Shown: positions 6,615 through 56,387, counted from the first letter of the stretch. The stretch is 64,000 nt of DNA from a virus (IMGVR_UViG_3300017722_003538:29071-93070); one strand, 5' to 3'. The notes: generated from the letters alone by a model not told the origin. Numbers and translations: made by a program.

Positions 6615-9600
6615 ATGGCTATAATTAACGAAAGCGCTGTAAACAATTCAATAGATAATAAATCTTTTGCCTTATTAAGAACAAATCCAAAGTTAACAAG
6701 TAATATAAAGTTACTTGTTAACTCAAAGGGTGACCTGTTTTTAAGTTCTTTTAGGGCAAATAAAGAACTTTCTAAAATTGAGTATCAAAAATACGATGTT
6801 AAATCTTCAGGAATATATTCTATTGACATTGCAAATTTTTATAAACAACTTCCACTAACACAAAGATACGAAACTCTTAGAGCCTCTTCAGACGTTACCC
6901 TATTTTCTGATTATGAATTTCAATATGAGGATCAGTATCAGTATGGAGCCATTCAAAACGTTACCAAATTATATGATGAGCAATATAAAATATTTGCTCC
7001 AATTTGGCTTGAAAAAAATGTACCAACTAAATTCATAGTTTACAGAATTGAAGACGTTGATTTCAAGACCGACTATACTGAAGATACAGTTGGACAAAAT
7101 TCTAGGATTTTAGAACTTCTTAAAAATGCAACAATAATTAAGACGTTTGATTTAGGTAAATTTTCAAAAATTGGAGAGTACTTAAATACACATGTTAACG
7201 ATAAAAGATTTCCAAACTCATTAATTACAGTAAATTTTAAAGAGGGTTCACAGTCAACTTTTAATGGTATTGACTGTGCTAATGGTGGATTTGTTACAAG
7301 AACAGAACAGTTAGACAAAGATTATATTCAAATTGATTATCCAGAAATTTTTAGCAACGAAACTATTACAAACGGATTTGAAAGAAATGGTATTGTCTCT
7401 GCTAATATAGTTAATTTAGAATTCTTATTTGATGATTATACGGCAGAGAACTATAAAATTTATAGATACTTTGGTATTTATGCAGATGATATTGATGAAG
7501 GAAACTTTGGATCTGTTGGACTTGATAATAGTGGAAATTTGAGTATTGAATATAATAGTTATAGAACCCTTTATGACCTATCACAATCTACAACACCACT
7601 AGTTGACATCAATATGTTTCCTGGAACTGACCAATTTCAAATTCCAACACTACAATATCTTAAAGACAAATCTGGTAATTTTTGTAATGTTAAAAATACA
7701 TCTACTAAATTAATTGACGCCGGAGACCCTTTATTAAATATACCGGAAATATGGTCTTACAAGTTTTTGATATCACCAAATAGTAATTCTGCCGAATCTT
7801 TTATTGGATTTGCAAAAAATGGTAAAAAAATAACGGCAGATTTAAGAAACCCAAGTCCTAAAGGATTTCTTAAAGTTACCGTAAAGGATGTTCCAAGTGC
7901 TAATGATAGAATATTTATCGGAGACCGGACAGAACTTCAAATTTCGCAATACAATCTAGGAGACTATTTAGTTATTGCAGACCCTTCTTTACCCGCTGCA
8001 AGGGCAGATGGTAATAGGTTTTCAAATCTGGGAAGTTTGCAACAAATAGCAATTGCTCTTGCATCTGCTATTAATAATGGAGAAATCATAACGTATAAAA
8101 CAAAGGTTGTAGATACTTCGATAATTATCGAAGAGATTGTTAATGGAAATAAGAGAAGACAAACTGCTTTTGGAATATTTAACGCAAATTTAGTCGATTG
8201 GATCGAAGTTTCTAATGGTGAATTTAATGACATTGGCTTAAATAGTGTTGATGGAAAAATTAACGTTAGTATTGTTGGAGCATGTTCTATATTAGGAGGT
8301 ATTTGGAAAGAAACAGGAATGTATAATGGCAAAAAAGAATACTCTAAACTAACACAACCATCTAGAAAAATTTCATACGATGGAAATAAATGGGTCTTAT
8401 GGGACGGTCCATTAACTCCTAAATATTTTGAAAATTTAACAGTTCCACTTGATACTAATCCCCCAACAACAGGCTGGGCTGGTGTTACATGTGTAGGAGC
8501 TTCGATGTCCCTATCTTTTATAGTTAATAATTTTGTAAACAATTGGAACATTTGGACTACAATCGCTGGATCAGTCGAAGGCCAATCTATTCTTGTTAAA
8601 TCTTCAGAAATTGGAAATGTACAGGTTGGAGAATATTTAAAACAAAAAGATTCTGACTACTTTGTTAGAATTATAGAAATTGACCAAGACCCGTTTGACA
8701 CAGATTATTATAGAGTTATTTTAGATAGACCTACAAAACTTTCAAATGACAAAGTATTTGAAGTTTACAATGAATATAAAACGGTTCACGGTAGATTTGC
8801 AGCTTATGACTTTAAAGATTTTGATTTTGATTTTTACTCTACTAGAAATTCAAATTTAGGAGACCTTGTTTATGATAAAAAATTAGACAATACTGACGTA
8901 GATGCTCAATCGTTTTATTCAGGTCTTAGAGATATTTTATCCGGTGAAACTTCAAAGGCAGTTGTTAAAACTGAACTATTAAATGAATATGACCGTCTTA
9001 AAGAAAATAGTCTTAAAGAAACTTCTCTTTTAAGTAGAGTGGTTCCTACTATCTGTAAATATGAACTTAAAAATTCATCTAACGCTAGAAATTTACCTTA
9101 TGTTTTAAATGTGAATGAGGCATTTGGAGATGACAATTTATCGCCGAACATAGAATTAGATTCAACTAGAAATATTGAATTCTTAAACATGGAGCACTTT
9201 CATATAAATAAGATTCCAGTTAATGTATTAGGAGTAAGAAGAGACTTAAATAATTATTTAGATTTTGCAAATGATGGAGGGTTAACCGTTTACAAGTTAA
9301 AAAGAACTGATTTTAATTTCTTTGATAAACATTTTAATTGGACCGGATATTTTGACCCGTACACATTGTCTGGTGCAGTATCTGGAAAATGGCACGATAA
9401 CTCTTTTAAAAGATTATGGTCTAAATTTGATAGTGGTAATTTTGAAAAAAATTCATCAACTGTTTTCAGAGGTCTTCGATATGTGTTCCAAAAAAGAAAA
9501 GAACTTATTAATGAAATTCCAACCGAATTTTTAAAAGGAATAGACATTAGTGATTATAAGTTCGGTGCGTATCTTTCTTATAATACAAATGATAGTATTA

Positions 9601-33449: not shown

Positions 33450-35321
33450 ATGGCATTACAAAAATTAAGAGAGTACTTTAACGAAACCAATAGAGAAACC
33501 TTTATTGATATGTTAAAAAATAGAGTGTTAGTGACTGAGAAAGTTGCAGCACCTACATTTCTTGTTAAAAGAAATCTTGATGGGTTTGAATATTTTAAAT
33601 CTTCAAATTCAGACAAATTAAATCTAGTTGACCGAACTGTTATCTCCCTATATGAGATTGCAATCAACTACATGCAAAGTTTGCCAAGCTCTACTAAAAA
33701 CCAAATGCCACTTGATTGGAGATTTGGTTTTGAATACCTACCAGAAGTTAATGTATCTAAAATTAAATACGGAAAGACCCCAAAAAATAACCTAATCCTA
33801 ACACATATTCAACAATTAGGAGAAGCAGACAGGGTTAAGAAAACCATAAATGATCCGGTAATCCTAAATAAATGGGCAAAAATTCTGGATGTTCAACAAC
33901 CAAGCGTAATTTTTGATGGCTATTTATCTCAATTACAGAGAGATGAACTTCTTGAATTACTTGGAATGAGCGATAGAGAATTTAGCGAATCATTTGATTA
34001 TTTAGAGGAAACAAAAGACAAGCTTAGTTTTACCAGTAAAATAGTTAAACTTTTTAATTCAAGCGCGTTTGAAACTGCCTTAAATTCAGATATTGATGAT
34101 GAATTTGATGGATTGGTTGTTAATTTTATTGACGAAAAATCGATGAAGTCTTTTAAATTAGAGGATTTTACCAGAAAAACTGGAATGGATAACTCTTCAA
34201 GCCACATGTACCAAATTGCAGTGACTGACTTTTTAGAATTTGCAACTCAATTTAATATCGACGAAATCCAACTCGAAGACGAGAGAGCAGACTACAGATA
34301 TCTTGAAATAATGTCGATAATGTTTAATGAATATGTTGACAAGAATTCCTCAAAATATATTGGAGTTAATTTTGAAAGCGCTGAATTTTCATCAGCACAA
34401 TCTTTTAAATTAAATACAAAATACATTCTTGACGAAAAGACCCTAAAATATACATCAAACGATATTTTAGCAGAGTTACTAAAAATGGTTTTAAGTTCTT
34501 TTAGAAAGAAGAGAACCAAAACAAGCGACCTAATCGACGAGGACACTATGAATCGTATGAATGAAATTATCGAAAAAATCAATCAGAAAATATTTGTTGA
34601 AAGTACTGACGAGAATGCAATATATGATTACCAAAATTTTATGTTGCGCGACAGGATTAAAACTTCAGTCAACCTAAATGAGGCACTTAAACTGACTCAT
34701 GTTGAACAAGGAAAACAGCCAGTAAATATGTTTGTTGGAAGATTTCAGCCCTTTACATTAGGACATGCTAAAGTTTTAGAGACTATTCATAAAGAAAATG
34801 GCTATCCAGTAGTTGTATTTCTAGTTAAAGCAAAAACCAAAAAGAAGGGTGATGAATTTAGCAGACCATACGATGAGAAGACCCAAATTGAAATGTTTAA
34901 AAACGTTCAAAAACAATACACATTCCTTAAAGAGATATATGTAATTCCAACTGGAGGTATAGATATTATGTTTAATGAAATGAGACCTAAATATGAACCA
35001 GTACTTTGGGGAACGGGAAGCGACAGAATGACAAGTTATGGTTATCAAGTAAACAATGATGCATATAGAGACCAATTAAATTGTAGAGCTGATTTTGGAC
35101 TTTTTGAAATTCCAAGAAATGATGATGATATTTCGGCTACTGCAGTTAGAAATGCGCTATTAGCAGGTGATGAAAAACAATTTCAGAATTTAACACCAAA
35201 GGCAGTTCATGGAATGTATAATGAACTTAAATCTAAAATTGAAGATTCAATGGGAGTAGTTGCTGAAGGATTTACCAATGAAATTATGACATTCGAACAA
35301 TTTATTAACAAAGATATATAA
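33450..35321 (+). CDS. Fusion of degenerate ligase-like domain and HIGH-superfamily cytidylyl/adenylyltransferase
   Basis: N-terminal VTEKVAAP and FDGLVV; C-terminal GRFQPFTLGH, GSDR, DISATAVRNAL; linker VNLNEA. Confidence 0.7.
   Translation: MALQKLREYFNETNRETFIDMLKNRVLVTEKVAAPTFLVKRNLDGFEYFKSSNSDKLNLVDRTVISLYEIAINYMQSLPSSTKNQMPLDWRFGFEYLPEVNVSKIKYGKTPKNNLILTHIQQLGEADRVKKTINDPVILNKWAKILDVQQPSVIFDGYLSQLQRDELLELLGMSDREFSESFDYLEETKDKLSFTSKIVKLFNSSAFETALNSDIDDEFDGLVVNFIDEKSMKSFKLEDFTRKTGMDNSSSHMYQIAVTDFLEFATQFNIDEIQLEDERADYRYLEIMSIMFNEYVDKNSSKYIGVNFESAEFSSAQSFKLNTKYILDEKTLKYTSNDILAELLKMVLSSFRKKRTKTSDLIDEDTMNRMNEIIEKINQKIFVESTDENAIYDYQNFMLRDRIKTSVNLNEALKLTHVEQGKQPVNMFVGRFQPFTLGHAKVLETIHKENGYPVVVFLVKAKTKKKGDEFSRPYDEKTQIEMFKNVQKQYTFLKEIYVIPTGGIDIMFNEMRPKYEPVLWGTGSDRMTSYGYQVNNDAYRDQLNCRADFGLFEIPRNDDDISATAVRNALLAGDEKQFQNLTPKAVHGMYNELKSKIEDSMGVVAEGFTNEIMTFEQFINKDI
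35313..35321 (+). promoter_or_regulatory. Putative late promoter GATATATAA
   Basis: Recurrent motif overlapping a stop codon. Confidence 0.55.
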
Positions 35322-40246: not shown

Positions 40247-41683
40247 ATGGAATTCTTAGACGCATTAAGACAAGAAGACATGGTAACTGAAAATGGAATG
40301 GCGACAAATTCGACATCGTTGAATGCTTGCGTTGACCTTTTCTTTAACATTGGAGCAATGAGAGGACAAGACAAACAACGTTTGATTGCAACCTTCTCTA
40401 AAGCGTTCAATGAAGATCCGAAGCGTGCTATGAAACTTCTTTTTTGGGCTAGAGATGTTCGAGGTGGAGCTGGAGAACGTCAAGTTTTCAAGGACATTTT
40501 AGTTTATTTGGCAGAAAACCATGACTTGGTTCTTAGACTTAATTTAAAACTAATCCCAGAGTACGGACGTTGGGATGATTTATTAGTCTTAACGGGAACA
40601 TATCTTGAAAAGCAAGCATTCACTTTAATTTCAAATGCAATAATCAACGAAAACGGCTTATGTGCAAAATGGATGCCACGTAAAGGACCAATCGCTGAAA
40701 AGTTACGTAAATTTACTGGAATGTCTCCAAAACAATACAGAAAATCTCTTGTAGGTTTAACAAACGTAGTTGAAACTAAGATGTGTGCTGGAGACTGGAA
40801 TTCTATCGACTTCGGTAAATTACCATCTGTCGCTTCAGCAAGATACCAAAAAGCATTTGGTAAAAACGCATACGAAAGTTATTCAGCCTATATTGCTTCT
40901 CTTGTAAAAGGTGAGGCTAAAATTAATGCAGGTGCAGTTTACCCATACGACGTGACTAAGTCTCTAAACTATGGAAACTCAAGCGTAGCAAACGAACAAT
41001 GGAAAGCTCTTCCAAACTATATGGAAGGCGCAAACGATATGATTTTACCAGTGGTTGATGTCTCAGGTTCTATGTCTTGCCCAGCAGGCGGTAGTAAATC
41101 TGTAACATGTATGGATGTTGCAATCTCTTTAGGTCTTTATATTTCTGAAAGAAATGTGGGTCCTTTCAAAGATGCATTCATTACTTTCTCAAGTAAACCA
41201 CAGTTACAAGTATTAAGTGGCTCATTGAGTGATCGCTACACACAGATGTCAAACTCCGATTGGGGAATGTCAACGGATCTTGAGGCGACCTTCAAATTGA
41301 TTTTAGATCAGGCCACTAAGCATAAACTATCGCAAGATAAAATGCCAAATAAAATCCTAATCCTATCGGATATGGAATTTAATGCCGCAGTTTCTTCTGG
41401 TGGTTACAGTACTAGATTTAAAGGTGGAAAATGGAATCCAGCTGCTCAGCAAATGATTGAGCAAATGTATGCCGATGCAGGTTACAAAGTACCTCAAATT
41501 GTTTACTGGAATATTCAATCCCGAAATGGAGGAGTACCGGTTGCATTTGATACTCAAGGAACTGCACTGGTTTCAGGATTCTCTCCAGCAATTATGACTA
41601 GTTTACTTGGAGGAGACATTGAATCTCCACAGCAAATCATGGATAAAACAATTTTGAGTGAGAGATACGCTCCAGTTGTTTAA
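40247..41683 (+). CDS. DUF2828-family TROVE/Ro60-like helical domain plus vWA protein
   Basis: TENG, DLFF, ARDVRGGAGER, EYGRWDDL, AKWMPR, YRK, VETKMC, vWA MIDAS VDVSGSM, ILSDMEFN, IVYWN, VSGFSP. Confidence 0.85.
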   Translation: MEFLDALRQEDMVTENGMATNSTSLNACVDLFFNIGAMRGQDKQRLIATFSKAFNEDPKRAMKLLFWARDVRGGAGERQVFKDILVYLAENHDLVLRLNLKLIPEYGRWDDLLVLTGTYLEKQAFTLISNAIINENGLCAKWMPRKGPIAEKLRKFTGMSPKQYRKSLVGLTNVVETKMCAGDWNSIDFGKLPSVASARYQKAFGKNAYESYSAYIASLVKGEAKINAGAVYPYDVTKSLNYGNSSVANEQWKALPNYMEGANDMILPVVDVSGSMSCPAGGSKSVTCMDVAISLGLYISERNVGPFKDAFITFSSKPQLQVLSGSLSDRYTQMSNSDWGMSTDLEATFKLILDQATKHKLSQDKMPNKILILSDMEFNAAVSSGGYSTRFKGGKWNPAAQQMIEQMYADAGYKVPQIVYWNIQSRNGGVPVAFDTQGTALVSGFSPAIMTSLLGGDIESPQQIMDKTILSERYAPVV

Positions 41684-42138: not shown

Positions 42139-42414
42139 ATGAATATTCTAGACGAAGCAAGCGGAATAGTTAATAACCGCTCAGAAGAAGCAGACAGACA
42201 ATATGGTCCTTTCTCAGAAGGTATGGACAGAGCTGCAATGATTTTTAATGGTATGACCGGACTTAATGTTACTGGTCGCGAAATGTTTATGGCACTAGTT
42301 GCACTTAAATTCAGTAGAGAGTCTTACAATCACAAGCGTGATAATTTATTAGATGCAGTTGCATATATCCAAGGATTAGACAACTACATTAACGAAAAGC
42401 AAAACAATGGTTAA
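42139..42414 (+). CDS. DUF6378-like all-alpha nucleotide pyrophosphatase-associated protein
   Basis: IL.EA..IV..R...YG.F...MVALK.SR...HKRDNLLDAVAY. Confidence 0.65.
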   Translation: MNILDEASGIVNNRSEEADRQYGPFSEGMDRAAMIFNGMTGLNVTGREMFMALVALKFSRESYNHKRDNLLDAVAYIQGLDNYINEKQNNG

Positions 42415-43456
42415 TATTTACACAGTTTTAGATTCATTAAAGGGTAAGAAGATTGCAATCGATGATGTTGTAACTACTTATAGTTCAAAGAAGGCCAGCC
42501 ATAAAAGTGCATGGGCTTTCTTATTAGCTAATCAATTAAGGTCCCTAGGACTGGATGCTGAAGTACTTACAAAGTCAGAAGATATTCACCAATATGATGT
42601 TTGGTTAGTAGCACTTCCAATGGAATTCCAAGGGTCTTATAACCTATTTGGTGGAGCCACTGACGAACCAGCAGAAAGGATTAAAAGATTTTTAGATTTT
42701 GGTGGAACAATATATTGTTTGAATCGAGAAATGCCAGATGTTGGAGCATTCGCACAAAGTCGAATGAAATCATGTTCACCTCTATGGGCATCTCTTAATG
42801 TTGAAGCACTTACAAAGAGGAGTAAAGAAACCGAAACAATTGAATTAAAATTGGCTTCCGGAACTTTTGTCCTAGGTGATTCCCATTCAGTTTCAGTATA
42901 CCAACCGGGCGCAAATATTAGCCGAAATGATGGTAAAACCCTATTTGGAGTTATGAAAGAAGGAATGGCATCTTATATTCCTGAAGGAACTGACCACCTA
43001 ATCACATACTTTGGAAACATCGATGTTCGTCATCACTTATGTCGACAAGAAAAACCTGTCGATGCGGTTAAAGCACTTGTAAAAAATTACTTTGAACACT
43101 TACAATCACTAGGAATTCAAAAGAATACGGTTGTAAAATTGCTACCTATCGAATTTGAAGGTCGCAGAATTCCTAAAACTGGGTACTACAAAGGAACTCC
43201 ATTTATCGGTACTCAACGGGAACGGACTCAATTAATGGAAATATTTAATGAAGAGGTTGACAAACTCTCGGCAATATATAATATGAACGTAATCGAATGG
43301 CCGATTCACTGGTATTCAGCAGACCCTCAATACTTTGCCGATACTTACATGGAAAAGCCAGGTTCAGTTCACCTATCTAGAGAGTTTTACCAATATGATT
43401 TCGAGACGTCCGAAAAAAATGTTGCCCTAAAGAAGACTATCAATACTCTTTTTTGA
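42407..43456 (+). CDS. Protein with C-terminal SGNH/GDSL-like domain
   Basis: VLGDSHS (block I), YFGNID (block III), GSVHLS (block V). Confidence 0.55.
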   Translation: MVNIYTVLDSLKGKKIAIDDVVTTYSSKKASHKSAWAFLLANQLRSLGLDAEVLTKSEDIHQYDVWLVALPMEFQGSYNLFGGATDEPAERIKRFLDFGGTIYCLNREMPDVGAFAQSRMKSCSPLWASLNVEALTKRSKETETIELKLASGTFVLGDSHSVSVYQPGANISRNDGKTLFGVMKEGMASYIPEGTDHLITYFGNIDVRHHLCRQEKPVDAVKALVKNYFEHLQSLGIQKNTVVKLLPIEFEGRRIPKTGYYKGTPFIGTQRERTQLMEIFNEEVDKLSAIYNMNVIEWPIHWYSADPQYFADTYMEKPGSVHLSREFYQYDFETSEKNVALKKTINTLF

Positions 43457-43482
43457 AACTTTTTAAATAAACCAAGTATAAA
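43454..43482 (+). promoter_or_regulatory. Putative promoter TGAAAC-N17-TATAAA
   Basis: Conserved motif and spacing upstream of ino1. Confidence 0.65.
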
Positions 43483-43507
43483 AATTATAAATTAAATTTT
43501 AAGAAAA

Positions 43508-44695
43508 ATGAACAAAATTAAAGTAGGAATTATTGGAACTGGAAATTGTGCCAAATCATTAGTTGAAGGTGTACAATATTACACAGAGAACCCAAATGAT
43601 ATTACTGGGATGATGAAATCCGACATCGGAGGTTACAAAGCAGAAAACATCGAGTTTGTATGTGGATTCGAAATTGATGAACGTAAAGTTAATCAAACAT
43701 TAGGATACGCACTTAAACAAAGACCAAACTCTGCATGGGACATTGTTGATGTTATTCACTCTGAAGCGCCAGTTTACGAGGCTCCAGTAATTGATGGTTA
43801 TGCAGCGCTTATGGATAACTATCCAGAACAAAATCGCTTCTTAGTTGACGAAAAACTGAGAAATTCTACGGACATGAATCGTACTGATTGGACTCCAAAA
43901 AAAGCACGTGAATGGAAGGATTCAATCATTGCTAAATTAAAAGACCATGGTGTTGAAGTATTGATTAACTACTTACCAGTAGGTTCTCAAAAAACAACTG
44001 AATTCTGGGCTGAAATTTGTCTTGAAACAGGAATCTCTCTAGTAAACTGTATTCCAGTATTTATTGCATCTGACCCTGCATGGGAGCAAAGATTCATCGA
44101 CGCTGGTATTCCAATTATCGGAGATGATATGCGTTCTCAATTTGGAGCAAGTATTCTTTCTCAAATGTTACAAGAACTTGCCTTTGAAAGAGGACATCAT
44201 GTAAAAGCCCACATCCAAAGAAATGTTGGAGGTAACACGGACTTCTTAAATATGGAAGATAAATCTCGTCTTGCTTCTAAAAAGATTTCTAAAGAAAACG
44301 TTATCCGTGCACAAAACGAAATCAGAGGAATTTCAACTGAAGATTCATTCCTACATGCCGGTCCTTCTGAGTATATCGCATTCTACGGTGATAATAAAGT
44401 TGCTAACTTCCGCTTAGAACTTACAGGATTCGGTGGAGCACCAGTTCTTTTTGATGCTCAATTAAGTGTACAAGACTCTCCAAACTCAGCTGGAGTAGTA
44501 ATCGATGCAGTTCGTTATTTAAGAGTTGCAAGAGAATTAGGAGTTGTAGGAGCCTTAAGAGGTCCTTCAGCGTTCACACAAAAAACTCCACCAGATCAAA
44601 TGATGTTTGCTGATGCGGTTTATGAGTGTACTGAATTGGCTGCAAGACGCTTAACAGATTCTACAAGAAAACAGTTAGTTGCTAAAAAAGCCTAA
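43508..44695 (+). CDS. ino1: myo-Inositol-1-phosphate synthase
   Basis: GTGNCAKSLVEG, NYLPVGS, NCIPVFIA, IGDDMRSQFGA, NVGGNTDFLNM, SKKISK, GPSEY, DNK, DSPNSAGVVIDA. Confidence 0.95.
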   Translation: MNKIKVGIIGTGNCAKSLVEGVQYYTENPNDITGMMKSDIGGYKAENIEFVCGFEIDERKVNQTLGYALKQRPNSAWDIVDVIHSEAPVYEAPVIDGYAALMDNYPEQNRFLVDEKLRNSTDMNRTDWTPKKAREWKDSIIAKLKDHGVEVLINYLPVGSQKTTEFWAEICLETGISLVNCIPVFIASDPAWEQRFIDAGIPIIGDDMRSQFGASILSQMLQELAFERGHHVKAHIQRNVGGNTDFLNMEDKSRLASKKISKENVIRAQNEIRGISTEDSFLHAGPSEYIAFYGDNKVANFRLELTGFGGAPVLFDAQLSVQDSPNSAGVVIDAVRYLRVARELGVVGALRGPSAFTQKTPPDQMMFADAVYECTELAARRLTDSTRKQLVAKKA

Positions 44696-44710
44696 CAATT
44701 AGATTAACCC

Positions 44711-44742
44711 AAAAAGGGAGAGAAGTAACTCTCCCTTTTTTT
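44711..44742 (+). terminator. Rho-independent terminator (possibly bidirectional)
   Basis: aaaaagggagag/ctctcccttttt. Confidence 0.75.
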
Positions 44743-44757
44743 ATCAAAACTTTACGC

Positions 44758-45156
44758 ATGTTAAACATATTTAAAACCAAAAAACCAGTCGATATCTACG
44801 GATATGATTTTGACGGAGTAATTTCAATTGGAATAACTCCAAGAGCCACTACCGATTTTGTTATTACCGGAAGATGCATTGATGAACAAGACGAAATCCG
44901 TGCAATCCTTAAAGAGAGAGGAATTAAATGCAAGGTGTATTTTAATCCAATGACTCTTGAGGAACGTGGAAACCATACAGTTGCCGCAAGAAGACATTCC
45001 GGGCATCACAAAGCGCATACAATTAACCGTTTAAAAAATGAAGGTGTTATTGTTTCACGTTTTTTTGAAGATGACCCAATACAATACCAAATTATTCAGG
45101 AAAACTGTCCAGATGTGGAATTAGTTAACATTGTATCAAAATTAGTACAGAAATAA
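44758..45156 (+). CDS. Minimal HAD-family phosphatase
   Basis: YDFDGV motif I, ITGR motif II, K motif III, FFEDD motif IV. Confidence 0.8.
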   Translation: MLNIFKTKKPVDIYGYDFDGVISIGITPRATTDFVITGRCIDEQDEIRAILKERGIKCKVYFNPMTLEERGNHTVAARRHSGHHKAHTINRLKNEGVIVSRFFEDDPIQYQIIQENCPDVELVNIVSKLVQK

Positions 45157-45157
45157 G

Positions 45158-45859
45158 ATGAGCAGAGTTAAACTTCCTGAGCTTCCAATTTCAAAATTGG
45201 AAAAAACCCGACTTAAAAAGAAATACGTTAAAATACTAGGAGCATCTGAAGGTGTTGATGATAGTATGATTGGCGAAAGTATTGCTAATTATTTAATCCC
45301 TGAGGTTGACTATAAGGGAATGGTTTGTCTTGACCTTGGAGCCAATATTGGAGCATTTACTCAAATTGCACTAGACGCTGGAGCAAGTAAAGTTTGTACT
45401 GTAGAATGCGATGCCCGAAACTTTGAGAAACTACAATCAACATACAAGAATGACGATTATGTCGATTTAGTTTATGCTGCCGTTTCTGGACTGCCTGATA
45501 AGACCTTAAAAATATTCAAATCTTCAAGCCAAAATGCACATTGTTCAACATCAATTGAGAGCAAAATGAAGTTCAGCGAATATGACTATGTTGAAAATAT
45601 ACACCTAAAAAAGTTACTTAAGAAATACAATCCAGATATTATTAAAATGGATATCGAATCTGCTGAGTATACCTTAATTGATACTTTAATAGATTACCAA
45701 CCTAAATATTTGTTTATTGAATTACATGCTGGAAAACACAGGGTTGAAATGTATCAGGTAATGGAAAGACTATTAGAAATTTACCCACATTCAAAAATAG
45801 TTCCATTGATTATATTTACCGACAATTTGATAGCACATGACTGCTTCTTTAAAAAATAA
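45158..45859 (+). CDS. FkbM-family SAM-dependent methyltransferase
   Basis: LDLGANIGAF, VEC...NF..L, AAVS, IIKMDIESAEY, IELH. Confidence 0.85.
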   Translation: MSRVKLPELPISKLEKTRLKKKYVKILGASEGVDDSMIGESIANYLIPEVDYKGMVCLDLGANIGAFTQIALDAGASKVCTVECDARNFEKLQSTYKNDDYVDLVYAAVSGLPDKTLKIFKSSSQNAHCSTSIESKMKFSEYDYVENIHLKKLLKKYNPDIIKMDIESAEYTLIDTLIDYQPKYLFIELHAGKHRVEMYQVMERLLEIYPHSKIVPLIIFTDNLIAHDCFFKK

Positions 45860-45867
45860 AACTTAAA

Positions 45868-47055
45868 ATGACTTCAAATAAACAACTGCTTGAGATGGAT
45901 TCTCAAGCACTGTTGGATTTAATACCAACAGAAAAAAGACAACTCATTCGAGACTTTGTTCATGAAATGAATCGTCGAGAATATGAGGTTCGTTTTGCAA
46001 AAACATGTACGTTCGATACATTTAGGCATCGAGAGGGTACTGGAGAGGACATTTTCGGTCATGGATTTATTGTAGAGGGACGCTCAGTTCCATACTTCCA
46101 CCCAAATCGTTCGTTTCACGACGAGATTATTTGGTTAAATGAAAATGTGTTCTACAATCCCGACTGTACCTTTGAAGACCGATTAATTAATGCAGCAATT
46201 GTAAAGTTCTATGGTCCGTCGAATACAATTAACTTATTAACTCAAGATACTGGTTATCCTTTTGTCAAGTATGAAAAATTGGTTAATGACGAAAAATATG
46301 TTCTCCAATGCATGGTTAACATGGAGAATGCAAAGAGGCGTGGAGAAAAGATTTATGGTACAACTGAATTACGAACAAGTTTACAGACCGAATCAAGAAA
46401 TCATGCAAGAGTAATTAAAACTCCTTATGACGTATTAATTGGCGCCGAACCGGATCCAACCAGACAAAGTCGAACTAGTGACATGTTCTTTTGGTTTACC
46501 CTATTGGGTCCGCGTTTTGTTGAATTCTATACAAAGAAACCGACAATGGAAGAGTCGTTTGAATTCTTAACATCGCATCGAGGAATTGGAAACTATTATG
46601 GTTACCATTTTAGTACCAACCTTGCCCGAATGCCAGAAATCGGTACTCCCGACCTATTGCGACCTAATGCACCTTTTGGAAATCTTAACGAAGACGATGA
46701 TTTTGTTGCACCCGGAGTTGGAGCGATGACCACAATCAACTGGTTCTATGAGGACTTAGGTTTTTCAATTTCATCCGATGTGGGAGCCAAGGTTATTAGA
46801 CAAATCCGGGACACTCAACATGAATTCTTTGATTTTACCGGAGAGAACCTTGACTATTTAGAAACTATTACAGAGACCGGAAGGTTTACAACGTTTGGTA
46901 CAGAAATTAGCTGTTGTCAGTTTGGCGTATTTTTACGATTGAGAGACAGTAAAAAGATGGCCTTAAACCGTGCAAATGCTCCAATTTCTAAAGAACAAAT
47001 TGGTGAATCTTGCGAAGTTGATGAACCAACATTTAAAAGTTCATGTTTATTTTAA
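45868..47055 (+). CDS. aGPT-PPlase / amino acid:DNA transferase-like helical protein (DNA base hypermodification)
   Basis: F.HEMNRRE, Y.HPNRSFHD, HhH-like RGIGNYYGY, NEDDDFVAPGVGA, E...CQF. Confidence 0.65.
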   Translation: MTSNKQLLEMDSQALLDLIPTEKRQLIRDFVHEMNRREYEVRFAKTCTFDTFRHREGTGEDIFGHGFIVEGRSVPYFHPNRSFHDEIIWLNENVFYNPDCTFEDRLINAAIVKFYGPSNTINLLTQDTGYPFVKYEKLVNDEKYVLQCMVNMENAKRRGEKIYGTTELRTSLQTESRNHARVIKTPYDVLIGAEPDPTRQSRTSDMFFWFTLLGPRFVEFYTKKPTMEESFEFLTSHRGIGNYYGYHFSTNLARMPEIGTPDLLRPNAPFGNLNEDDDFVAPGVGAMTTINWFYEDLGFSISSDVGAKVIRQIRDTQHEFFDFTGENLDYLETITETGRFTTFGTEISCCQFGVFLRLRDSKKMALNRANAPISKEQIGESCEVDEPTFKSSCLF

Positions 47056-47096
47056 ACAAGTTTAAAATTACCTATAAAACTATTATATAAAAACTT

Positions 47097-47564
47097 ATGG
47101 CAAATATAGACAATCAATGTAAAGACCTGGAAGTTAAAGACTTCTATTCAGATTCGACCACCCACCTGGCGGATATTATGGAAAACCAAAAGAAAATGCA
47201 GGAGCAAACTTATGGTTTCAATTTTGAAAATATGTCAATTAGAGAAATTATGAACTTTTGGCATGTTAATACCCATGCAGTAGTTGATGAAATTCACGAG
47301 ATGACAGATGCCCTTGGAGGTATTAAAGATGGTAGTGGAAATGCAGTTTGGAAATACTGGAAAAAAGACTTTTCAAAGTATGAAACCATGAAAATCAGCG
47401 ACCTATCTGAAGAGGACAAGAAAGAACTTTATATGGAATGGGTAGACATACTACACTTCTTTATAAATTATGCGTCTTCAATCGGATTAGATGCAAAAAC
47501 AGCGTACAATTATTACTTCGCGAAAGCAGAAGAAAATGTTAACCGTCAAAAAAGAGGATATTAA
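47097..47564 (+). CDS. Dimeric dUTPase/dCTPase (MazG fold, T4 gp56-like)
   Basis: DEIHEM, WKYWK, EWVDILHF, YFAKAEENVNRQKRGY. Confidence 0.85.
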   Translation: MANIDNQCKDLEVKDFYSDSTTHLADIMENQKKMQEQTYGFNFENMSIREIMNFWHVNTHAVVDEIHEMTDALGGIKDGSGNAVWKYWKKDFSKYETMKISDLSEEDKKELYMEWVDILHFFINYASSIGLDAKTAYNYYFAKAEENVNRQKRGY

Positions 47565-48961
47565 TGATTTTAGACATCGAACAGCGTGAAAAAGATGTTA
47601 TCATTTCATACTACAATGACAAAGGTGAAGTAGCATTCAAACAATATCCAGTGGATAAATTCCAAAATTGGTATGTTTGTGATGACAAAGACAAAGCGGC
47701 TAGCCCAGACTATAAAAACTGGGATGGCCGTCCTGTTAAACTAGGATATGGAAAACAATTCAATAAGTTTTCTATCCTTTATTTTTTAGATAATCTTTCA
47801 GAGAAAGACAAAAAGGATTTGACAGCATATAATATGCCAAAAACCTATTTTGTCGATATTGAAACTGAAATTGTTGATGGCTTTCCAAAAGCCGAAGAGG
47901 CCAAAAGTAGAATTCTTTCATTCTCAATAATCACTCCAGACCGTAAAGCAATCGTCTTAGGTTTGGAAGATATGGCCTCAGATAAAATCCAAAAGATTCA
48001 AGATGATACTAATGAGTATTTCAAAGACTTTGACCAGGACTGGGAATTTAAGTACCACAAGTTTAAGTCTGAATATGACATGGTGTACACATTCTTAATG
48101 AAATTCTTACCAAAGTTTCCAATGATGACTGGGTGGAATTTTATTAACTATGACTGGCAATATATTGTTAATCGATGCAAGAGACTTCAAATCGATATTA
48201 AAGAAGTTGGTATGACAAATTCAATCGATCATACTGATGGTCGACCTCTTCATATTGGAATTCTTGACTACATGCAATTGTATGATAAATACGACCGAAC
48301 TGTAAAAGTTAAAGAATCTAACTCTTTGGATTATGTTTCAAGTCAAGTTTTGAACGTTAACAAAATCAAGTTCACTGGCTCACTACAGGACTTATACCGC
48401 GATAATTTTGTCAAGTACATATATTACAATGTTGTCGATTCAGTGTTGGTGTACTACATTGACCAGAAGTTGAAGTCCATGGAGGTACTACTAACCTTGG
48501 CAAATATTACAAATATGCCATTGTATAAAGCAAGTTCTCCAGTGGCGGTTACTGAAGCTATTATGGCTAGAAAACTTGCTGAGCAAGGAATGCGAATTGG
48601 AAGCGAAGAGAAAAATGATAGTCAAAAAGATGGTCAATACGCCGGAGCATTTGTAAAAGAACCTATACTTGGATTCTATGAAGGTGTAAGTGCATTCGAT
48701 TTTGCGTCACTATACCCTTCTATCATGAGACAATTTAATATATCTCCAGATGCCTACATCGAAAAGATTTATAAGAGTGAAATTGAAGAGAGACGTAAAG
48801 ACAAAGAGGTTATCGTTTGTGATAATGGTGTAGTTTATAAAACTGAGGATTCAATCTTAAGAAAGATATTAAGTGACCTTTATGCACAACGTAAAGATTA
48901 TAAAAAAACTTCTTATGAATACTTCACAAAAGCTGACCGGTTGAAAAAACTGCTCCAATAA
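47564..48961 (+). CDS. gp43: Family B DNA polymerase, N-terminal subunit (exonuclease, motif A, first fingers helix)
   Basis: DIETE ExoI, GWNFINYD ExoII, YNVVD ExoIII, YAGAFVKEP, FDFASLYPS; lacks motifs B and C. Confidence 0.92.
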   Translation: MILDIEQREKDVIISYYNDKGEVAFKQYPVDKFQNWYVCDDKDKAASPDYKNWDGRPVKLGYGKQFNKFSILYFLDNLSEKDKKDLTAYNMPKTYFVDIETEIVDGFPKAEEAKSRILSFSIITPDRKAIVLGLEDMASDKIQKIQDDTNEYFKDFDQDWEFKYHKFKSEYDMVYTFLMKFLPKFPMMTGWNFINYDWQYIVNRCKRLQIDIKEVGMTNSIDHTDGRPLHIGILDYMQLYDKYDRTVKVKESNSLDYVSSQVLNVNKIKFTGSLQDLYRDNFVKYIYYNVVDSVLVYYIDQKLKSMEVLLTLANITNMPLYKASSPVAVTEAIMARKLAEQGMRIGSEEKNDSQKDGQYAGAFVKEPILGFYEGVSAFDFASLYPSIMRQFNISPDAYIEKIYKSEIEERRKDKEVIVCDNGVVYKTEDSILRKILSDLYAQRKDYKKTSYEYFTKADRLKKLLQ

Positions 48962-51749: not shown

Positions 51750-51768
51750 AAATAAAAATCTTTTGCAA

Positions 51769-52860
51769 ATGATTCCAATCAGGCTTTTCGAAGAATTCGT
51801 ATACAAAGAAAATCTTAAAAACAAATATGCTAAAAAAGTAGCATGGATTATGATGTCTAATGACATTCAAGCAACTTCAGGAGATGTTAATGATCGCGAA
51901 AAGAAATATAATATTTCCGCTAAAGGTAATCTATTCCTGAACTATGCAACAAAAGAGGACTTCGAAGACAAGAAAGTTGTGGTACCTTCTGATGTGCCAA
52001 TACTTTATTATGGTGGTTTTGGAGGACCAAATCACCCTGAAGCCGTTGCATTTTTAAAGAATAAAGGTATCAACAATGATAATTTATACAATAAAAGAGA
52101 ATTGCTTCAACTTTCAGGAGACAAGGTAAAATTTGCCAAAGCAGCTGCAAAATTTGATTGGCTTCCAAAGACGTGTTTTTCAAAAGAGGGTGCGGTTAAA
52201 GGAGACGTTGGTTTTCCAGTAATTGCAAAAATAAAAGATGGACATAGTGGAGTTGGAATTCAAAAATTCGACACTGCTAAGGAACTAGAAGAGAGCAAAG
52301 ATACATTCGATATCTTTTGTCAATTTATAGATTTTGCTAGAGAATACAGAGTAATGTTTTGTAGAGACAAGATTTTTGTTATCAATGAAAGAGTACCAAG
52401 AATTGAAGATGACCGTTCGATTAAAACTAAAACTGCCGATGAAAAAATCAGTTTTACTTATGTTTATCAAGACAGAAAGAAAGTTGACCCTAAATTTATT
52501 GAAAATGTGCTATCAATTTGTAAAGACGTTAAAACATTCCTGGACCTAGACTTATGGGCCCTAGATATTGTTGTAGACAAAAAAGGAAAAATGTGGATTA
52601 TGGAAACATCATCTGCTACCGGACTTGGAAGCGTTAAAATGTGCGAAGTTTATAAGGCAATGTACGAAGATTTTTATGGAGAACCCTTAAACGATGAATT
52701 CTTAGAGGAAATTTACCTAAAATATGTAGTTCCTGGACATCAGAATTACTACCCAAAATTTAAAAAAGAAATCGATTCGTCTCAATGGCCAATGGATTAC
52801 AAGATATTGACAGATCCAAAGGCAAAAGATGGATATCGATATTTTTTCAATTTAGACTAA
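51769..52860 (+). CDS. ATP-grasp ligase (RimK-like) with CTS-like leader
   Basis: DK, FPVIAK...GHSGVGI, QFI...EYRV, ALDIV...WIMETSS; N-terminus MIPIRLFEEFVYKE. Confidence 0.75.
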   Translation: MIPIRLFEEFVYKENLKNKYAKKVAWIMMSNDIQATSGDVNDREKKYNISAKGNLFLNYATKEDFEDKKVVVPSDVPILYYGGFGGPNHPEAVAFLKNKGINNDNLYNKRELLQLSGDKVKFAKAAAKFDWLPKTCFSKEGAVKGDVGFPVIAKIKDGHSGVGIQKFDTAKELEESKDTFDIFCQFIDFAREYRVMFCRDKIFVINERVPRIEDDRSIKTKTADEKISFTYVYQDRKKVDPKFIENVLSICKDVKTFLDLDLWALDIVVDKKGKMWIMETSSATGLGSVKMCEVYKAMYEDFYGEPLNDEFLEEIYLKYVVPGHQNYYPKFKKEIDSSQWPMDYKILTDPKAKDGYRYFFNLD

Positions 52861-52861
52861 T

Positions 52862-53920
52862 ATGAAAACAGGAATTTTTAAAACATCGCTAAAGGAAAAC
52901 GAAAAACGTATTCCAATCCATCCAGCCCATATTGAAAGACTATCTAGAGACATTATCAAAGAACTCCTTTTTGAAGAGGGATATGGAATCGACTACGGAT
53001 ATTCAGACAATCAACTTGAACAAATAGGTTGTAATTTTGCCAGTCGTGAGGATCTTTTTAAAGAGTGTAGCATAATTATACTACCAAAGCCCGTTGCCGA
53101 AGACCTAAAACAAATGCAAGATGGTGCAACATTATGTGGTTGGACCCATGCAGTTCAACAACGAGACATTACAGATATTGCAATCGAAAAGAAATTAACA
53201 TTGATTGCTTGGGAAGAGATGAATTACATTAGTAAAAGCTCAAAATTGCATTCATTCTATCGTAACAATGAATTAGCCGGATATGCTGGAGTTATTCATT
53301 ACCTACAATTAGCAGGTCTTGATGGACATTATGGTGACCGCAAGAAGGTTGTTATTTTTGGATTTGGTTCTGTAAGTAAAGGAGCAATCTATGCCCTACA
53401 AGGTAGAGGGTTTAACAACATTGTAGTTTACACACAGCGACCAACGCACTTGGTAGCAGACAAAAATCCAGATGTTTGGTACAAAAACTTTAACGATGAT
53501 GATATTTGGGAAGACATGTACTCTGCCAATATAATATTTAATGGAGTCCTACAGGACGTAAATAATCCAATAATGTTTATTCGTGATAAGGACCAATTGG
53601 CTCAATTACGTAGAAATTGTGCAATCATCGATATTAGTTGTGACAAGGGAATGGGATTCTATTTTGCCGAACCTACAACATTTGAAAATCCAATTATCAA
53701 ACTGGACAGGGGAGTACAATATTATTCAGTCGATCATACTCCAACATACCTATGGAATGCTGCATCTAGAGAAATCTCTGCCGCATTGGTTCCACACTTA
53801 GAAACTATAATCGACCCATCTAAATGGGAAGGTAATCCGGTAGTTAATTGCGCTATCGATATTGCATGTGGAACTATTATTAATCAAAACATAAACAAAT
53901 TTCAAAAAAGAAATATATAA
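52862..53920 (+). CDS. ceo: N5-(carboxyethyl)ornithine synthase (AlaDH/PNT family)
   Basis: KENEKRIPIHP, GWTHAVQ, IAWEEM, FYRNNELAGYAGV, GFGSVSKG, IDISCD, VDHTPTYLWNAASREIS. Confidence 0.85.
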   Translation: MKTGIFKTSLKENEKRIPIHPAHIERLSRDIIKELLFEEGYGIDYGYSDNQLEQIGCNFASREDLFKECSIIILPKPVAEDLKQMQDGATLCGWTHAVQQRDITDIAIEKKLTLIAWEEMNYISKSSKLHSFYRNNELAGYAGVIHYLQLAGLDGHYGDRKKVVIFGFGSVSKGAIYALQGRGFNNIVVYTQRPTHLVADKNPDVWYKNFNDDDIWEDMYSANIIFNGVLQDVNNPIMFIRDKDQLAQLRRNCAIIDISCDKGMGFYFAEPTTFENPIIKLDRGVQYYSVDHTPTYLWNAASREISAALVPHLETIIDPSKWEGNPVVNCAIDIACGTIINQNINKFQKRNI

Positions 53921-55190: not shown

Positions 55191-56387
55191 ATGACAATCG
55201 AAGAATTAATACTAAAACCAGAAGGTGAGTTATCGCAAGATGAAATTAAAATATTGGTTGAGCATTATTCTATGTTGTCAGCAAAGTTCGGAGCCTATGA
55301 GCAAGCCGTAAAAGTAATGCTTAACTCGATCTACGGCGCCTTCGGTAACAAATGGTTTCACTTTTTTAATATAGACATCGCAGAATCGATCACATTACAA
55401 GGTCAATCTGCGATTCTATATTCTGAGAAGATACTAAATAAGTATTTTCAAGAGTTCTGGACCAAGGATCGGGCAGTTCATGAGTTTTTTAACATTCAAG
55501 TTAAAAATAAACTTGTGCGACCTTCCGTAGTTTATATCGATACAGATTCTTGTTATGTTCAGTTTGAAGAGATGTATGAATCTATCGAATGGCTTAGAGA
55601 CAAGGTATCGATTGACCAATTCATTATGAAATTGTATAACTTCAGACTTAAAGATTATATTTTTAAGTGTATGGAGAAATATGCCGAAGCCACTAATACT
55701 GAAAACTTCCTCCAGTTTGAATTGGAAACAATTGCATACTCTGGGATTTGGTTAGCTAAGAAAAAATACTTGCAGAATATTGCATGGGAAGACAAGATTG
55801 GAATCGAAGAACGTTATCCATCTCTTAAGAAGGTTAAAACTATCGGATTTGATACGATTCAAAGTTCAACACCAGCACTTGCAAGAAAGCAGTTGACTGA
55901 GATTCTTAAACTGATTCTTTCAGAAAAACCTACCGCTTCCTTATTGAAAAGACTTGTAGACTATTTGAAACAATGTAAAAAAGAATTTCAATTAGCAAGT
56001 GTTGATGAGATATGTTTTAATAAAAGAACAAACAATCTTGAAAAATATATCGTAGATGATACCGTAGAATTTCAATATGGTTTAAAATGTCCGCCAAACG
56101 TAAAAGCCGCAGGTTTTTATAATTTCTTAATGAATCAAAATCCAAAGTTCAAGAACAAGTACAAGATGATTGGTAATGGTGAAAAGTTAAAATTGTACCA
56201 CTGTAAACATGCGACTTGCGAGATATTTGCATACCAACCTGGAGCTCACCCTTATGAAATTGCACCGACAGTTGACTATGAAATGCAATTTGAAAAGAGC
56301 GTTATAGACCCATTGAACCGGGTTCTAACCGCAGTTGGACTACACACATTAAATAGAAACTTAATTTATTCAACCTCATTATTTTAA
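55191..56387 (+). CDS. gp43: Family B DNA polymerase, C-terminal subunit (motifs B and C, thumb)
   Basis: KVMLNSIYGAFG, AESITLQGQ, YIDTDS, AKKKY, SSTP, QFEKS, C-terminal SLF clamp-binding-like tail. Confidence 0.93.
   Translation: MTIEELILKPEGELSQDEIKILVEHYSMLSAKFGAYEQAVKVMLNSIYGAFGNKWFHFFNIDIAESITLQGQSAILYSEKILNKYFQEFWTKDRAVHEFFNIQVKNKLVRPSVVYIDTDSCYVQFEEMYESIEWLRDKVSIDQFIMKLYNFRLKDYIFKCMEKYAEATNTENFLQFELETIAYSGIWLAKKKYLQNIAWEDKIGIEERYPSLKKVKTIGFDTIQSSTPALARKQLTEILKLILSEKPTASLLKRLVDYLKQCKKEFQLASVDEICFNKRTNNLEKYIVDDTVEFQYGLKCPPNVKAAGFYNFLMNQNPKFKNKYKMIGNGEKLKLYHCKHATCEIFAYQPGAHPYEIAPTVDYEMQFEKSVIDPLNRVLTAVGLHTLNRNLIYSTSLF

Follow-up and report, generated by a model that had tools for sequence, protein, structure and literature searches.

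The 64,000-nucleotide window analyzed here is the last 64 kb of an IMG/VR virus record (IMGVR_UViG_3300017722_003538; 93,070 bases, rated 34% complete), and at positions 42,139 to 47,564 it contains a run of seven genes whose products include a myo-inositol-1(3)-phosphate synthase (MIPS; gene ino1), a small HAD-superfamily phosphatase, an SGNH-fold protein, an FkbM-family methyltransferase, and a helix-hairpin-helix (HhH) protein named ORF8. On balance, we favor the view that this locus is the core of a phage pathway by which free inositol, optionally O-methylated, is attached to 5-hydroxymethylcytosine (5hmC) in DNA. This view draws on the identities and folds of the gene products, the conserved linkage of their genes, gene fusions, and the company of other nucleotide- and DNA-modification genes.

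With an ORF8 alignment as the seed, 89 stretches containing a relative were retrieved from IMG/VR, and the best 80 of these 89 were analyzed with hidden Markov models. MIPS was found in 75 of the 80 loci, the HAD protein in 74, and the SGNH-fold protein in 73. Confining the count to well-flanked loci (at least 4.5 kb upstream and at least 2.5 kb downstream; n = 43) gave 43/43 for the SGNH-fold protein, which is an obligate partner of ORF8, 42/43 for MIPS, and 39/43 for the HAD protein; the sole well-flanked locus without MIPS is that of Aeromonas phage 44RR2.8t, and the HAD gene is missing from L058, L059, L063, and 44RR2.8t. The gene set is kept even where ORF8 identity falls to 24-46%, and it occurs in at least five orders, such as MIPS-x-HAD-ORF8-SGNH in L049-L059 and SGNH-MIPS-FkbM-HAD-ORF8 in L037-L046. 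A search seeded with MIPS yielded 521 viral stretches, the best 80 of which are all at least 82% identical and represent one lineage; in 65 further MIPS-seeded loci, an ORF8-family gene was present in all 46 with enough downstream DNA, the HAD gene in 61/61, and the SGNH gene in 59/59. Moreover, ORF8 occurs fused to its neighbors, as SGNH-ORF8 (P0123 and P0124 (= 44RR ORF233c)), ORF8-SGNH (P0122), and FkbM-ORF8 (P0121, P0144, and P0146). Recurrence in divergent phage lineages, in rearranged orders and in fusions places this arrangement far beyond chance. The Pfam scan of eight distant loci covered 128 neighboring proteins and revealed no CDP-alcohol phosphotransferase or other lipid gene among them. 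Thus, ino1 stands beside DNA-modification genes and not lipid genes, in three cultured lineages as well as in these loci, and the co-occurrence of ino1 with the ORF8 gene across phages, as well as its travel with modification genes, came out as the original prediction had it.

The sole Pfam match of ORF8 is to PF18723 ("5-hmdU DNA kinase, helical domain", where 5-hmdU is 5-hydroxymethyldeoxyuridine; HMUDK_hel), with 35.4 bits (cut-off 25; E 9.8e-9). In phage M6, gp55 scores 190 bits on PF18723 and gp51 is the PF18724 protein. The order of the M6-like cassette, as given in the available text of the SN1 genome announcement, is Nmad5, aGPT-Pplase1, kinase, rSAM (radical S-adenosylmethionine, SAM) protein, PLP (pyridoxal phosphate) enzyme, and aGPT-Pplase2 (PMC9476957); gp55 is thus a PF18723 protein at the aGPT-Pplase1 position, and therefore PF18723 corresponds to the former aGPT-Pplase clade 1. 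By its sequence, ORF8 is assigned to this clade 1 and not to clade 2 (PF18724), that of the proven amino-acid:DNA transferases. When the ORF8 profile was run against 1.84 billion representative proteins, only 66 matched at E<=0.001, the weakest of them including the canonical PF18723 proteins P0176 and P0180 (195 and 182 bits on PF18723), and all 19 distant matches that were scanned belong to PF18723. The AF2 model of ORF8 is all-helical (pLDDT 90.9), and in an exhaustive VIA-align search its best structural match was 8z2m_A, the PaMx11 5-PmdU glycinyltransferase (Z 9.5, rmsd 4.4, 231 residues), followed at ranks 2-3 by QNG1/DUF2419 (Z 8.6 and 8.4) and at ranks 4-22 and 24 by HhH DNA glycosylases, down to Z 4.7. 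Foldseek of the same model against the PDB returned nothing at E<=0.001, and sequence and profile searches against PDB chains gave no match. The claim that the protein at 45868..47055 is aGPT-PPlase-like is therefore sustained by the PF18723 score, by the reverse profile search, and by 8z2m at the top of the fold search.

The ORF8 profile also aligned with M6 gp55 (clade 1) at E 6.6e-4, with E346...C350 set against the E...C of gp55. The residues E346, C350, and Q351 are invariant among 40 ORF8 sequences of type A and are kept in a form about 25% identical (type B); the catalytic residues of clade 2 include a conserved Cys with a Glu close by, according to the available text of PMC8989533. Family motifs of ORF8 are YFHP, GTTELRTSL, G[IV]GxYYGYH, GPGA, and E-x3-CQF; M6 gp55 aligns with them in the GPGA and E-x3-C parts. 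In the lineage of the window, the ORF8 slot holds either the 395-residue form or the type B paralog of 346 residues, which keeps YFHP, GTTELRTSL, GVGxYYGYH, GPGA, and E-x3-CQF. Loci L069-L085 carry this paralog, together with a MIPS 81-90% identical and an SGNH gene 62-78% identical to those of the window, and from sequence comparison the presumed transferase appears to have been exchanged in place. Longer ORF8 homologs of 480-608 residues (P0014-P0048; L037-L046) have a C-terminal extension of about 100-200 residues with no Pfam match and no usable match in the ESM Atlas. A HAD domain fused to ORF8 in the homologs of 480-600 residues was considered and discarded, since the extension is C-terminal, matches none of the proteins of the window, and belongs to no Pfam family. 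In cells, a pattern-based scan of low sensitivity over 185,579 bacterial and archaeal species genomes detected no relatives of ORF8.

The SGNH-fold protein was modeled by AF2 with a pLDDT of 90.7, and the model places an SGNH fold over residues 150-338. Its top VIA-align matches are GDSL esterases and acetyltransferases (Z 12.0-8.8, with Z 12.0 for 2hsj and 4rsh), and almost all of the matches listed for this domain are SGNH-type esterases or acyltransferases; on the Pfam GDSL family the protein scores 17.6 bits, under the cut-off of 23.6. No variation is seen at G157-D158-S159-H160, G203, D206, and H322, and almost none at N204 and I205; the GDSH (157-160) and GNID (203-206) motifs are therefore conserved. 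The C-terminal domain is accordingly modeled as an SGNH/GDSL fold with its catalytic blocks. The domain in front of it (residues 1-145) is Rossmann-like and found no usable match in the ESM Atlas.

The MIPS of the window scores 80.2 bits on PF01658. Its best solved relative is M. tuberculosis Ino1 (1gr0, 263 bits), with which the GxGNCA, SKKISK, GGN.DF, and DSPNSAG stretches align; 6k96, a synthase of a five-membered cyclitol, gives 142 bits. The HAD protein has no cap domain, and across 22 aligned homologs E104 is almost invariant, while D17, D19-G20-V21 (DxDGV), T37-G38-R39, K85, and D105-D106 show no variation. Pfam gave no match for it (one homolog reaches 20.9 bits on HAD IIIB, below the cut-off), and searches of PDB chains by sequence and profile returned chance-level rows only. 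We infer that it is an inositol-phosphate phosphatase; it is missing in 44RR2.8t, which also has no MIPS. The gap that separates ino1 from the HAD gene contains a hairpin with a T-run after it, as originally described, and this is possibly a bidirectional terminator or attenuator. The scanned region contains four terminator-like sites against 3.5 expected from shuffled sequences, and therefore the claim of a terminator stands for the structure and not for its significance, the hairpin being statistically nothing special.

The FkbM protein matches PF05050 at 51.7 bits (cut-off 22.7) and TIGR01444 at 62.6 bits (cut-off 37.7). No match to it was found by tblastn in several relatives (e.g., L010, L013, L016, L078, and L079), and it is presumably an optional tailoring enzyme, an O-methylase. 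The genes beside the module differ in other loci: L042 (8880-13238) has an additional methyltransferase and a pair of sulfotransferase-like proteins, L067 (10913-12205) has a GT4 glycosyltransferase, and L038 (12606-13592) and L042 have GalE-like epimerases. Judged by their gene annotations, these accessory genes suggest that the attached group has diversified among loci, as in other hypermodification systems. A C5 cytosine DNA methyltransferase, which flanks the module in six of the eight distant loci, was rejected as a core part because it is present in only four of ten records and absent from the complete 44RR2.8t genome.

As for the target, the original prediction had proposed a 5-hydroxymethylpyrimidine, and its enzymes were sought beyond the window. 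A divergent thymidylate-synthase homolog (59-82 bits on PF00303) was found in all ten other ORF8-bearing records, four of which are rated 100% complete, and six of the ten (G001, G002, G003, G006, G008, and G010) also have a canonical thymidylate synthase. Every divergent copy (10/10) reads MRS[NQ]D...G...D, as in T4-type gp42, with Asp at the ThyA-177 position and Asp169 kept, whereas Asn occupies the ThyA-177 position in canonical thymidylate synthases, in the dUMP hydroxymethylase of M6, and in the enzyme of Ralstonia phage RP13. From work on T4 gp42, Asp at this position denotes cytosine specificity. According to the available text of PMC13326640, N177 is a specificity determinant in E. 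coli ThyA, and D169N homologs make 5-hydroxy-dCMP. Since Asp169 is kept, the enzymes here are not 5-hydroxy-dCMP synthases, and 5-hydroxymethyl-dCMP is their predicted product. The hydroxymethylase being of the cytosine type, the predicted base is 5hmC and not 5-hydroxymethyluracil (5hmU), so that the proposed target holds in this narrower form. In L051, L057, L062, and L065 the hydroxymethylase is 55-59% identical to T4-type gp42; its gene lies inside 26 of the 80 ORF8 loci and within about 6 kb of ORF8 in six of the eight distant loci. Other neighbors in these eight loci are dCMP deaminase (five loci), dUTPase (three), a nucleoside 2-deoxyribosyltransferase-like protein (three), and thymidine kinase (two). 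One such nucleoside 2-deoxyribosyltransferase-like protein (PF15891, 119-133 bits) lies between MIPS and HAD in L051, L057, and L065 (about 9150-9620). The product of the last gene of the run (47097-47564) matches phrog_173 (E 1.9e-13) and in tblastn shows 30-42% identity over 59-92% of the query to annotated gp56/dCTP pyrophosphatase proteins (T2, JSE, and others), and is by homology probably a T4 gp56-type dCTPase.

Several cultured phages carry parts of this module. In Aeromonas phages 44RR2.8t and 31 and their relatives (19 records), ORF8 is found only as a 795-residue SGNH-ORF8 fusion, which in 44RR2.8t adjoins a sodium:solute symporter gene (PF00474, 181 bits); neither MIPS nor HAD was found in the 21-kb locus of 44RR2.8t. 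This genome has an annotated gene 42 and, like G001, no PF18724 protein. In the available text of Petrov et al. 2010 (PMC2993671), phages 44RR, 31, and 25 have genes 42 and 56 and no glucosyltransferase, and the fate of 5hmC is left open. A symporter in place of MIPS and HAD fits, on gene content, the import of a free solute replacing its synthesis. MIPS itself occurs among cultured phages in 16 Stenotrophomonas, 2 Caulobacter, and 1 Ralstonia records, and the same small HAD protein lies no more than 1.1 kb downstream of it in Cr30, Mendera, and RP13 (174, 142, and 95 bits, respectively), with no ORF8 type A/B or SGNH homolog nearby. In Caulobacter phage Cr30 (L106 2732-7257), a PF18724 amino-acid:DNA transferase gene (179 bits) stands two genes upstream of ino1, with a weakly matching TET-associated glycosyltransferase (TAGT)-like protein gene between them, and a canonical thymidylate synthase is the only one found in the genome. 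In RP13 (L107 915-10535), ino1 and HAD lie between PF18723 (162 bits) and PF18747 5-hmdU DNA kinase (51 bits) genes; its hydroxymethylase is of the dUMP type (Asn) and PF18724 is absent from the genome, so that a clade 1 protein can be the only aGPT-Pplase-type protein of a genome. In Stenotrophomonas phage Mendera (L005 5098-10624), the pair is placed in a 7-deazaguanine cluster, between GTP cyclohydrolase (FolE) and QueC/QueE genes. Thus, the MIPS and HAD pair recurs independently with DNA-modification genes in three cultured lineages. Mendera gp042 (403 residues), whose gene lies between those for QueC and QueE, matches no Pfam or NCBIfam family.

In the proposed pathway, a gp42-like dCMP hydroxymethylase and a gp56-like dCTPase would replace cytosine by 5hmC as in T-even phages, MIPS would convert glucose-6-phosphate into inositol phosphate, and the small HAD phosphatase would release free myo-inositol. 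ORF8 and its SGNH-fold partner would flip out 5hmC and join an inositol hydroxyl to the 5-methylene carbon, probably through a Cys-C6 adduct and an exocyclic methylene intermediate involving Cys350 and Glu346, by analogy with clade 2; the SGNH-fold protein might create an ester leaving group or present the polyol. Where present, the FkbM methyltransferase would O-methylate the cyclitol. The resulting modification would protect the DNA against nucleases of the host, taking the place of the glucosylation that these phages do without. Both the Cys-C6 adduct and the exocyclic methylene intermediate have been shown for clade 2 enzymes. The mature base of phage ViI is 5-NeOmdU (5-(2-aminoethoxy)methyl-dU). 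This base is O-linked and ViI gp247 attaches serine, as the available text of PMC8989533 describes; an oxygen nucleophile thus has precedent.

A number of points weigh against this pathway. The support is computational only, and from it we infer the target base, each step of the chemistry, the linkage as an ether, and what the SGNH-fold protein does; the proposed chemistry does not account for the constant presence of this protein. To our knowledge, clade 1 (PF18723) proteins have no demonstrated activity. ORF8 gave no match to PF18724 even at E<=10, and hhalign of its profile with M6 gp51 (clade 2) gave a probability of 0.2%; the idea that it is itself an amino acid:DNA transferase of clade 2 had to be given up in favor of the clade 1 assignment. 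In the available text of PMC8989533, the kinase and glycine-transfer steps proceed in vitro, in lysates, without any need for M6 gp55. The best structural match, at Z 9.5, is modest and by the note of the tool within reach of unrelated helical proteins, so that the weight of the fold search would lie in its uniform ranking and not in this value alone. As for the base, the 93-kb record of the window itself yielded no thymidylate-synthase homolog or hydroxymethylase; the record being 34% complete, this assignment rests on relatives whose ORF8 is 93-96% identical, and of the two base-replacement enzymes only the dCTPase is in the window, the hydroxymethylase being seen in relatives. The P-loop 5-hmdU kinase sought in the rest of these genomes did not turn up: PF18748 was found in none of five records, a search whose controls were also silent, and PF18747 in none of four ORF8 records, with RP13 detected as a positive control; three of the records searched are rated 100% complete. 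With no such kinase, the leaving-group activation of the known mechanism is left with no candidate enzyme. On TIGR03450 the MIPS scores 286.4 bits, below the equivalog cut-off of 638, and one of its relatives makes a five-membered cyclitol, so that a cyclitol other than myo-inositol may be made. Sequence does not tell which solute the Aeromonas symporter carries. In addition, the counted loci come mostly from a few related T4-like lineages, and the counts overstate their independence. The idea of inositol attached to phage pyrimidines was strengthened by every computational test proposed for it, with corrections to the clade, the base, and the kinase, and it is strengthened rather than proven.

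Several other readings compete with the attachment of inositol to 5hmC in DNA. It is rather unlikely, in our estimate, that the module acts on free nucleotides or nucleosides, with ORF8 working like QNG1 on, for example, 5hm-dCMP and the cyclitol-nucleotide being incorporated later or used otherwise. QNG1 structures do rank second and third in the fold search (Z 8.6 and 8.4), and the neighborhood is rich in dCTPase, dCMP deaminase, dUTPase, thymidine kinase, and nucleoside 2-deoxyribosyltransferase-like genes, but the best structural match and the Pfam family come from hypermodification systems that act on DNA, and the known bulky pyrimidine hypermodifications are described as post-replicative in the available texts of PMC13326640 and PMC8989533. 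Unlikely, too, is an ORF8 that is a mere DNA-binding, base-flipping adaptor, whose fused or associated partners modify 5hmC with an SGNH-borne acyl or an FkbM-borne methyl group while inositol acts indirectly or later. Such a role for clade 1 is implied by the name of PF18723 and agrees with the dispensability of the clade 1 protein for M6 transfer in vitro, with the fusions of ORF8 to SGNH or FkbM, and with the lack of a detected kinase; on the other hand, many polar residues of ORF8 are invariant, among them E346, C350, and Q351, which type B keeps, RP13 has a clade 1 but no clade 2 protein, and an indirect role does not explain the near-universal linkage to MIPS.

We give little credence to 5hmU as the target, formed by a phage dCMP deaminase acting on 5hm-dCMP and followed by a thymidine-type hypermodification. 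In the available text of PMC8989533, 5hmU systems are the only known source of PF18723 and PF18724 proteins; the record contains a dCMP deaminase gene (C1:7967-8479), as does the neighborhood of the module in five of the eight distant loci; and RP13 pairs MIPS and HAD with a dUMP-type hydroxymethylase. However, all ten hydroxymethylases of ORF8 genomes have the cytosine-type Asp, thymine would be made normally in the six of ten records with a canonical thymidylate synthase, and no 5-hmdU kinase was found. Least probable of all appears to be an auxiliary metabolic pair, in which MIPS and HAD supply inositol as an osmolyte or for the host envelope or signaling, and the adjacency of ORF8 is early-gene synteny. 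The pair does occur in Cr30, Mendera, and RP13 with neither ORF8 type A/B nor SGNH nearby, and in the available text of the Ps15 genome paper the MIPS gene is taken as a bacterial acquisition with no role given (PMC9025141). Nevertheless, the linkage survives rearrangement, the swap to an ORF8 paralog of 25% identity, and different flanks; the pair is still found among DNA-modification genes in the three cultured phages; and the 128 neighbors include no lipid or CDP-alcohol phosphotransferase gene.

Compared with the thymidine hypermodification of M6, PaMx11, ViI, and PhiW-14, the inositol module shares membership of ORF8 in PF18723, the HhH fold of the clade 2 protein 8z2m, a conserved Glu...Cys pair in ORF8 that may correspond to the catalytic one, a genome making a 5-hydroxymethylpyrimidine, a dedicated supply of the attached group, and variable tailoring enzymes. 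It differs in its cytosine-type hydroxymethylase, and neither a 5-hmdU DNA kinase nor a clade 2 protein was found; moreover, its presumed nucleophile is a cyclitol rather than an amino acid or polyamine, and only here is there an obligatory SGNH-fold partner. With the glucosylation of 5hmC in T-even phages it has in common the gp42-like and gp56-like genes in a T4-like genome and an expected role in the post-replicative masking of 5hmC. Unlike in those phages with their alpha- and beta-glucosyltransferases, no glucosyltransferase is found here and the phage would make its own group for attachment (MIPS and HAD); a cyclitol has no anomeric carbon, so that the nucleotide-sugar chemistry of T-even phages cannot apply. 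In the arabinosyl-5-hydroxycytosine system of RB69 and DLP3, as far as the available text of PMC13326640 describes it, a thymidylate-synthase homolog likewise makes a modified dCMP and the attached group is supplied by the phage, a HAD phosphatase freeing the sugar from its phosphate. Their enzyme, however, is the D169N form that yields 5-hydroxycytosine, whereas Asp169 is kept here, and attachment there proceeds from UDP-arabinose by GT-B glycosyltransferases and not by an HhH protein (PMC13326640).

QNG1/DUF2419 and the HhH DNA glycosylases (AlkA, Nth, OGG, and MutY) resemble ORF8 in overall fold (Z 8.6-4.7), but there is no detectable sequence similarity, the motifs of ORF8 are restricted to its family, and the genomic context is different. 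As in the bacterial and archaeal inositol pathways, in which Ino1 and an inositol monophosphatase (IMPase) lead to mycothiol, phosphatidylinositol, or di-myo-inositol phosphate, an Ino1 of the actinobacterial type is followed by a phosphatase; here, in contrast, this is a minimal HAD protein instead of an IMPase-family enzyme, and the partners are DNA-modification genes. The core set contains no CDP-alcohol phosphotransferase or MshA-type gene, and no search was aimed at an IPCT-type cytidylyltransferase. The original prediction had known of no inositol-modified base, and full-text literature searching (supplements not covered) likewise turned up no paper that describes a DNA base carrying inositol or any other cyclitol; the two papers on hypermodification that do use the word inositol have it solely in the names of reference glycosyltransferases. 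For inositol in Cr30, the 10 of 214 matches listed were all unrelated papers.

More tentatively, and with rather less confidence than for the locus itself, we propose a wider scheme in which aquatic T4-like phages and Aeromonas phages 44RR2.8t and 31 would link a phage-made cyclitol (myo-inositol, in some cases O-methylated, sulfated, or glycosylated) by an ether bond to 5hmC, with no kinase, by means of a clade 1 aGPT-Pplase and its SGNH-fold partner, and in which MIPS and HAD would also feed 5hmU chemistry (Cr30 and RP13) and 7-deazaguanine chemistry (Menderaviruses). If true, a cyclitol would be a new chemical class on DNA bases and the first carbocyclic polyol base modification, the chemistry of the aGPT-Pplase type would extend from thymine to cytosine derivatives, clade 1 would have its first assigned activity, and there would be a kinase-independent way to derivatize 5hmC. 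It would also offer an answer to the question of 2010 about the use of 5hmC in phages of the 44RR2.8t type, which have genes 42 and 56 and no glucosyltransferase. Inosityl-5-hydroxymethyldeoxycytidine is isobaric with its hexosyl counterpart, so such adducts could have passed for glycosylation. Phage DNA hypermodifications decide which restriction, CRISPR, and other nucleic-acid-targeting defenses are escaped, and some enzymes that they have yielded serve in DNA labeling and epigenetic sequencing. The module is common, with 521 viral contig stretches encoding the phage MIPS, and since several carriers are in culture the proposal is directly testable.

The features of the locus are listed in Table 1. 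All seven + strand open reading frames (ORFs) of the run of co-oriented genes first described were recovered exactly at these coordinates, and the annotations uphold their names; the last one abuts a DNA polymerase B N-terminal fragment (47564-48961).

Table 1. Features of the putative inositol-modification locus; positions are counted from the first nucleotide of the window.
Feature	Position	Strand	Remarks
DUF6378 protein	42139..42414	+	91 aa; 3' end overlaps next gene start by 8 bases
Two-domain SGNH-fold protein	42407..43456	+	349 aa; Rossmann-like 1-145, SGNH/GDSL-fold 150-338 (modeled)
Myo-inositol-1(3)-phosphate synthase (MIPS, Ino1-like; ino1)	43508..44695	+	395 aa; PF01658
Hairpin between A-run and T-run	44716..44733	.	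in 62-base gap between ino1 and HAD gene
Capless (C0) minimal HAD-superfamily phosphatase	44758..45156	+	132 aa; HAD motifs in alignment
FkbM-family SAM methyltransferase	45158..45859	+	233 aa; PF05050, TIGR01444
ORF8, helix-hairpin-helix (DNA-glycosylase-like) protein	45868..47055	+	395 aa; PF18723
T4 gp56-type dCTPase/dUTPase, all-alpha NTP pyrophosphohydrolase (putative)	47097..47564	+	155 aa; gp56 homology, phrog_173

By gene content, the source virus is classed as a T4-like myovirus: the record encodes gp32, UvsW, a RecA/UvsX-like protein, a DnaB-like helicase, a Mre11/Rad50-like pair, gp25-like and gp15-like proteins, and ribonucleotide reductase. When the nucleotide sequence of the locus was compared with cultured phages, nothing beyond short matching patches came up. 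The DUF6378 protein matches PF19905 at 37.2 bits (cut-off 27.1), and its homolog adjoins the module in most loci of the lineage of the window and of the L037-L046 group; L038 and L042 have it between a gp42-like gene and a dUTPase gene.

Some other genes of the window were also examined. Directly upstream of the module, with a gap of 455 bases after it, is the gene of a DUF2828/DUF7788 protein (40247-41683; phrog_850, annotated "RNA-binding protein"). Further upstream, a 623-residue protein (33450-35321) conserved within the lineage of the window has a C-terminal cytidylyltransferase-like domain (PF01467; phrog_3041) and an N-terminal part of about 420 residues with no assignment. It was tried as an activator of inositol phosphate and set aside, there being no such gene near the module in the eight distant loci. 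Downstream (51763-53920), genes for an ATP-grasp protein (weak match to the R2K clade) and an AlaDh/PNT-like dehydrogenase follow one another, with no PHROG match, and this pair is patchy, being present in some close relatives and absent from others. Two separate genes (47564-48961 and 55191-56387), about 6.2 kb apart, encode the split family B DNA polymerase, and between them lie the ribonucleotide reductase subunits, the ATP-grasp protein, the AlaDh/PNT-like dehydrogenase, and an ORF of 251 residues; in Aeromonas phage 44RR2.8t, the two polymerase halves are adjacent to each other.

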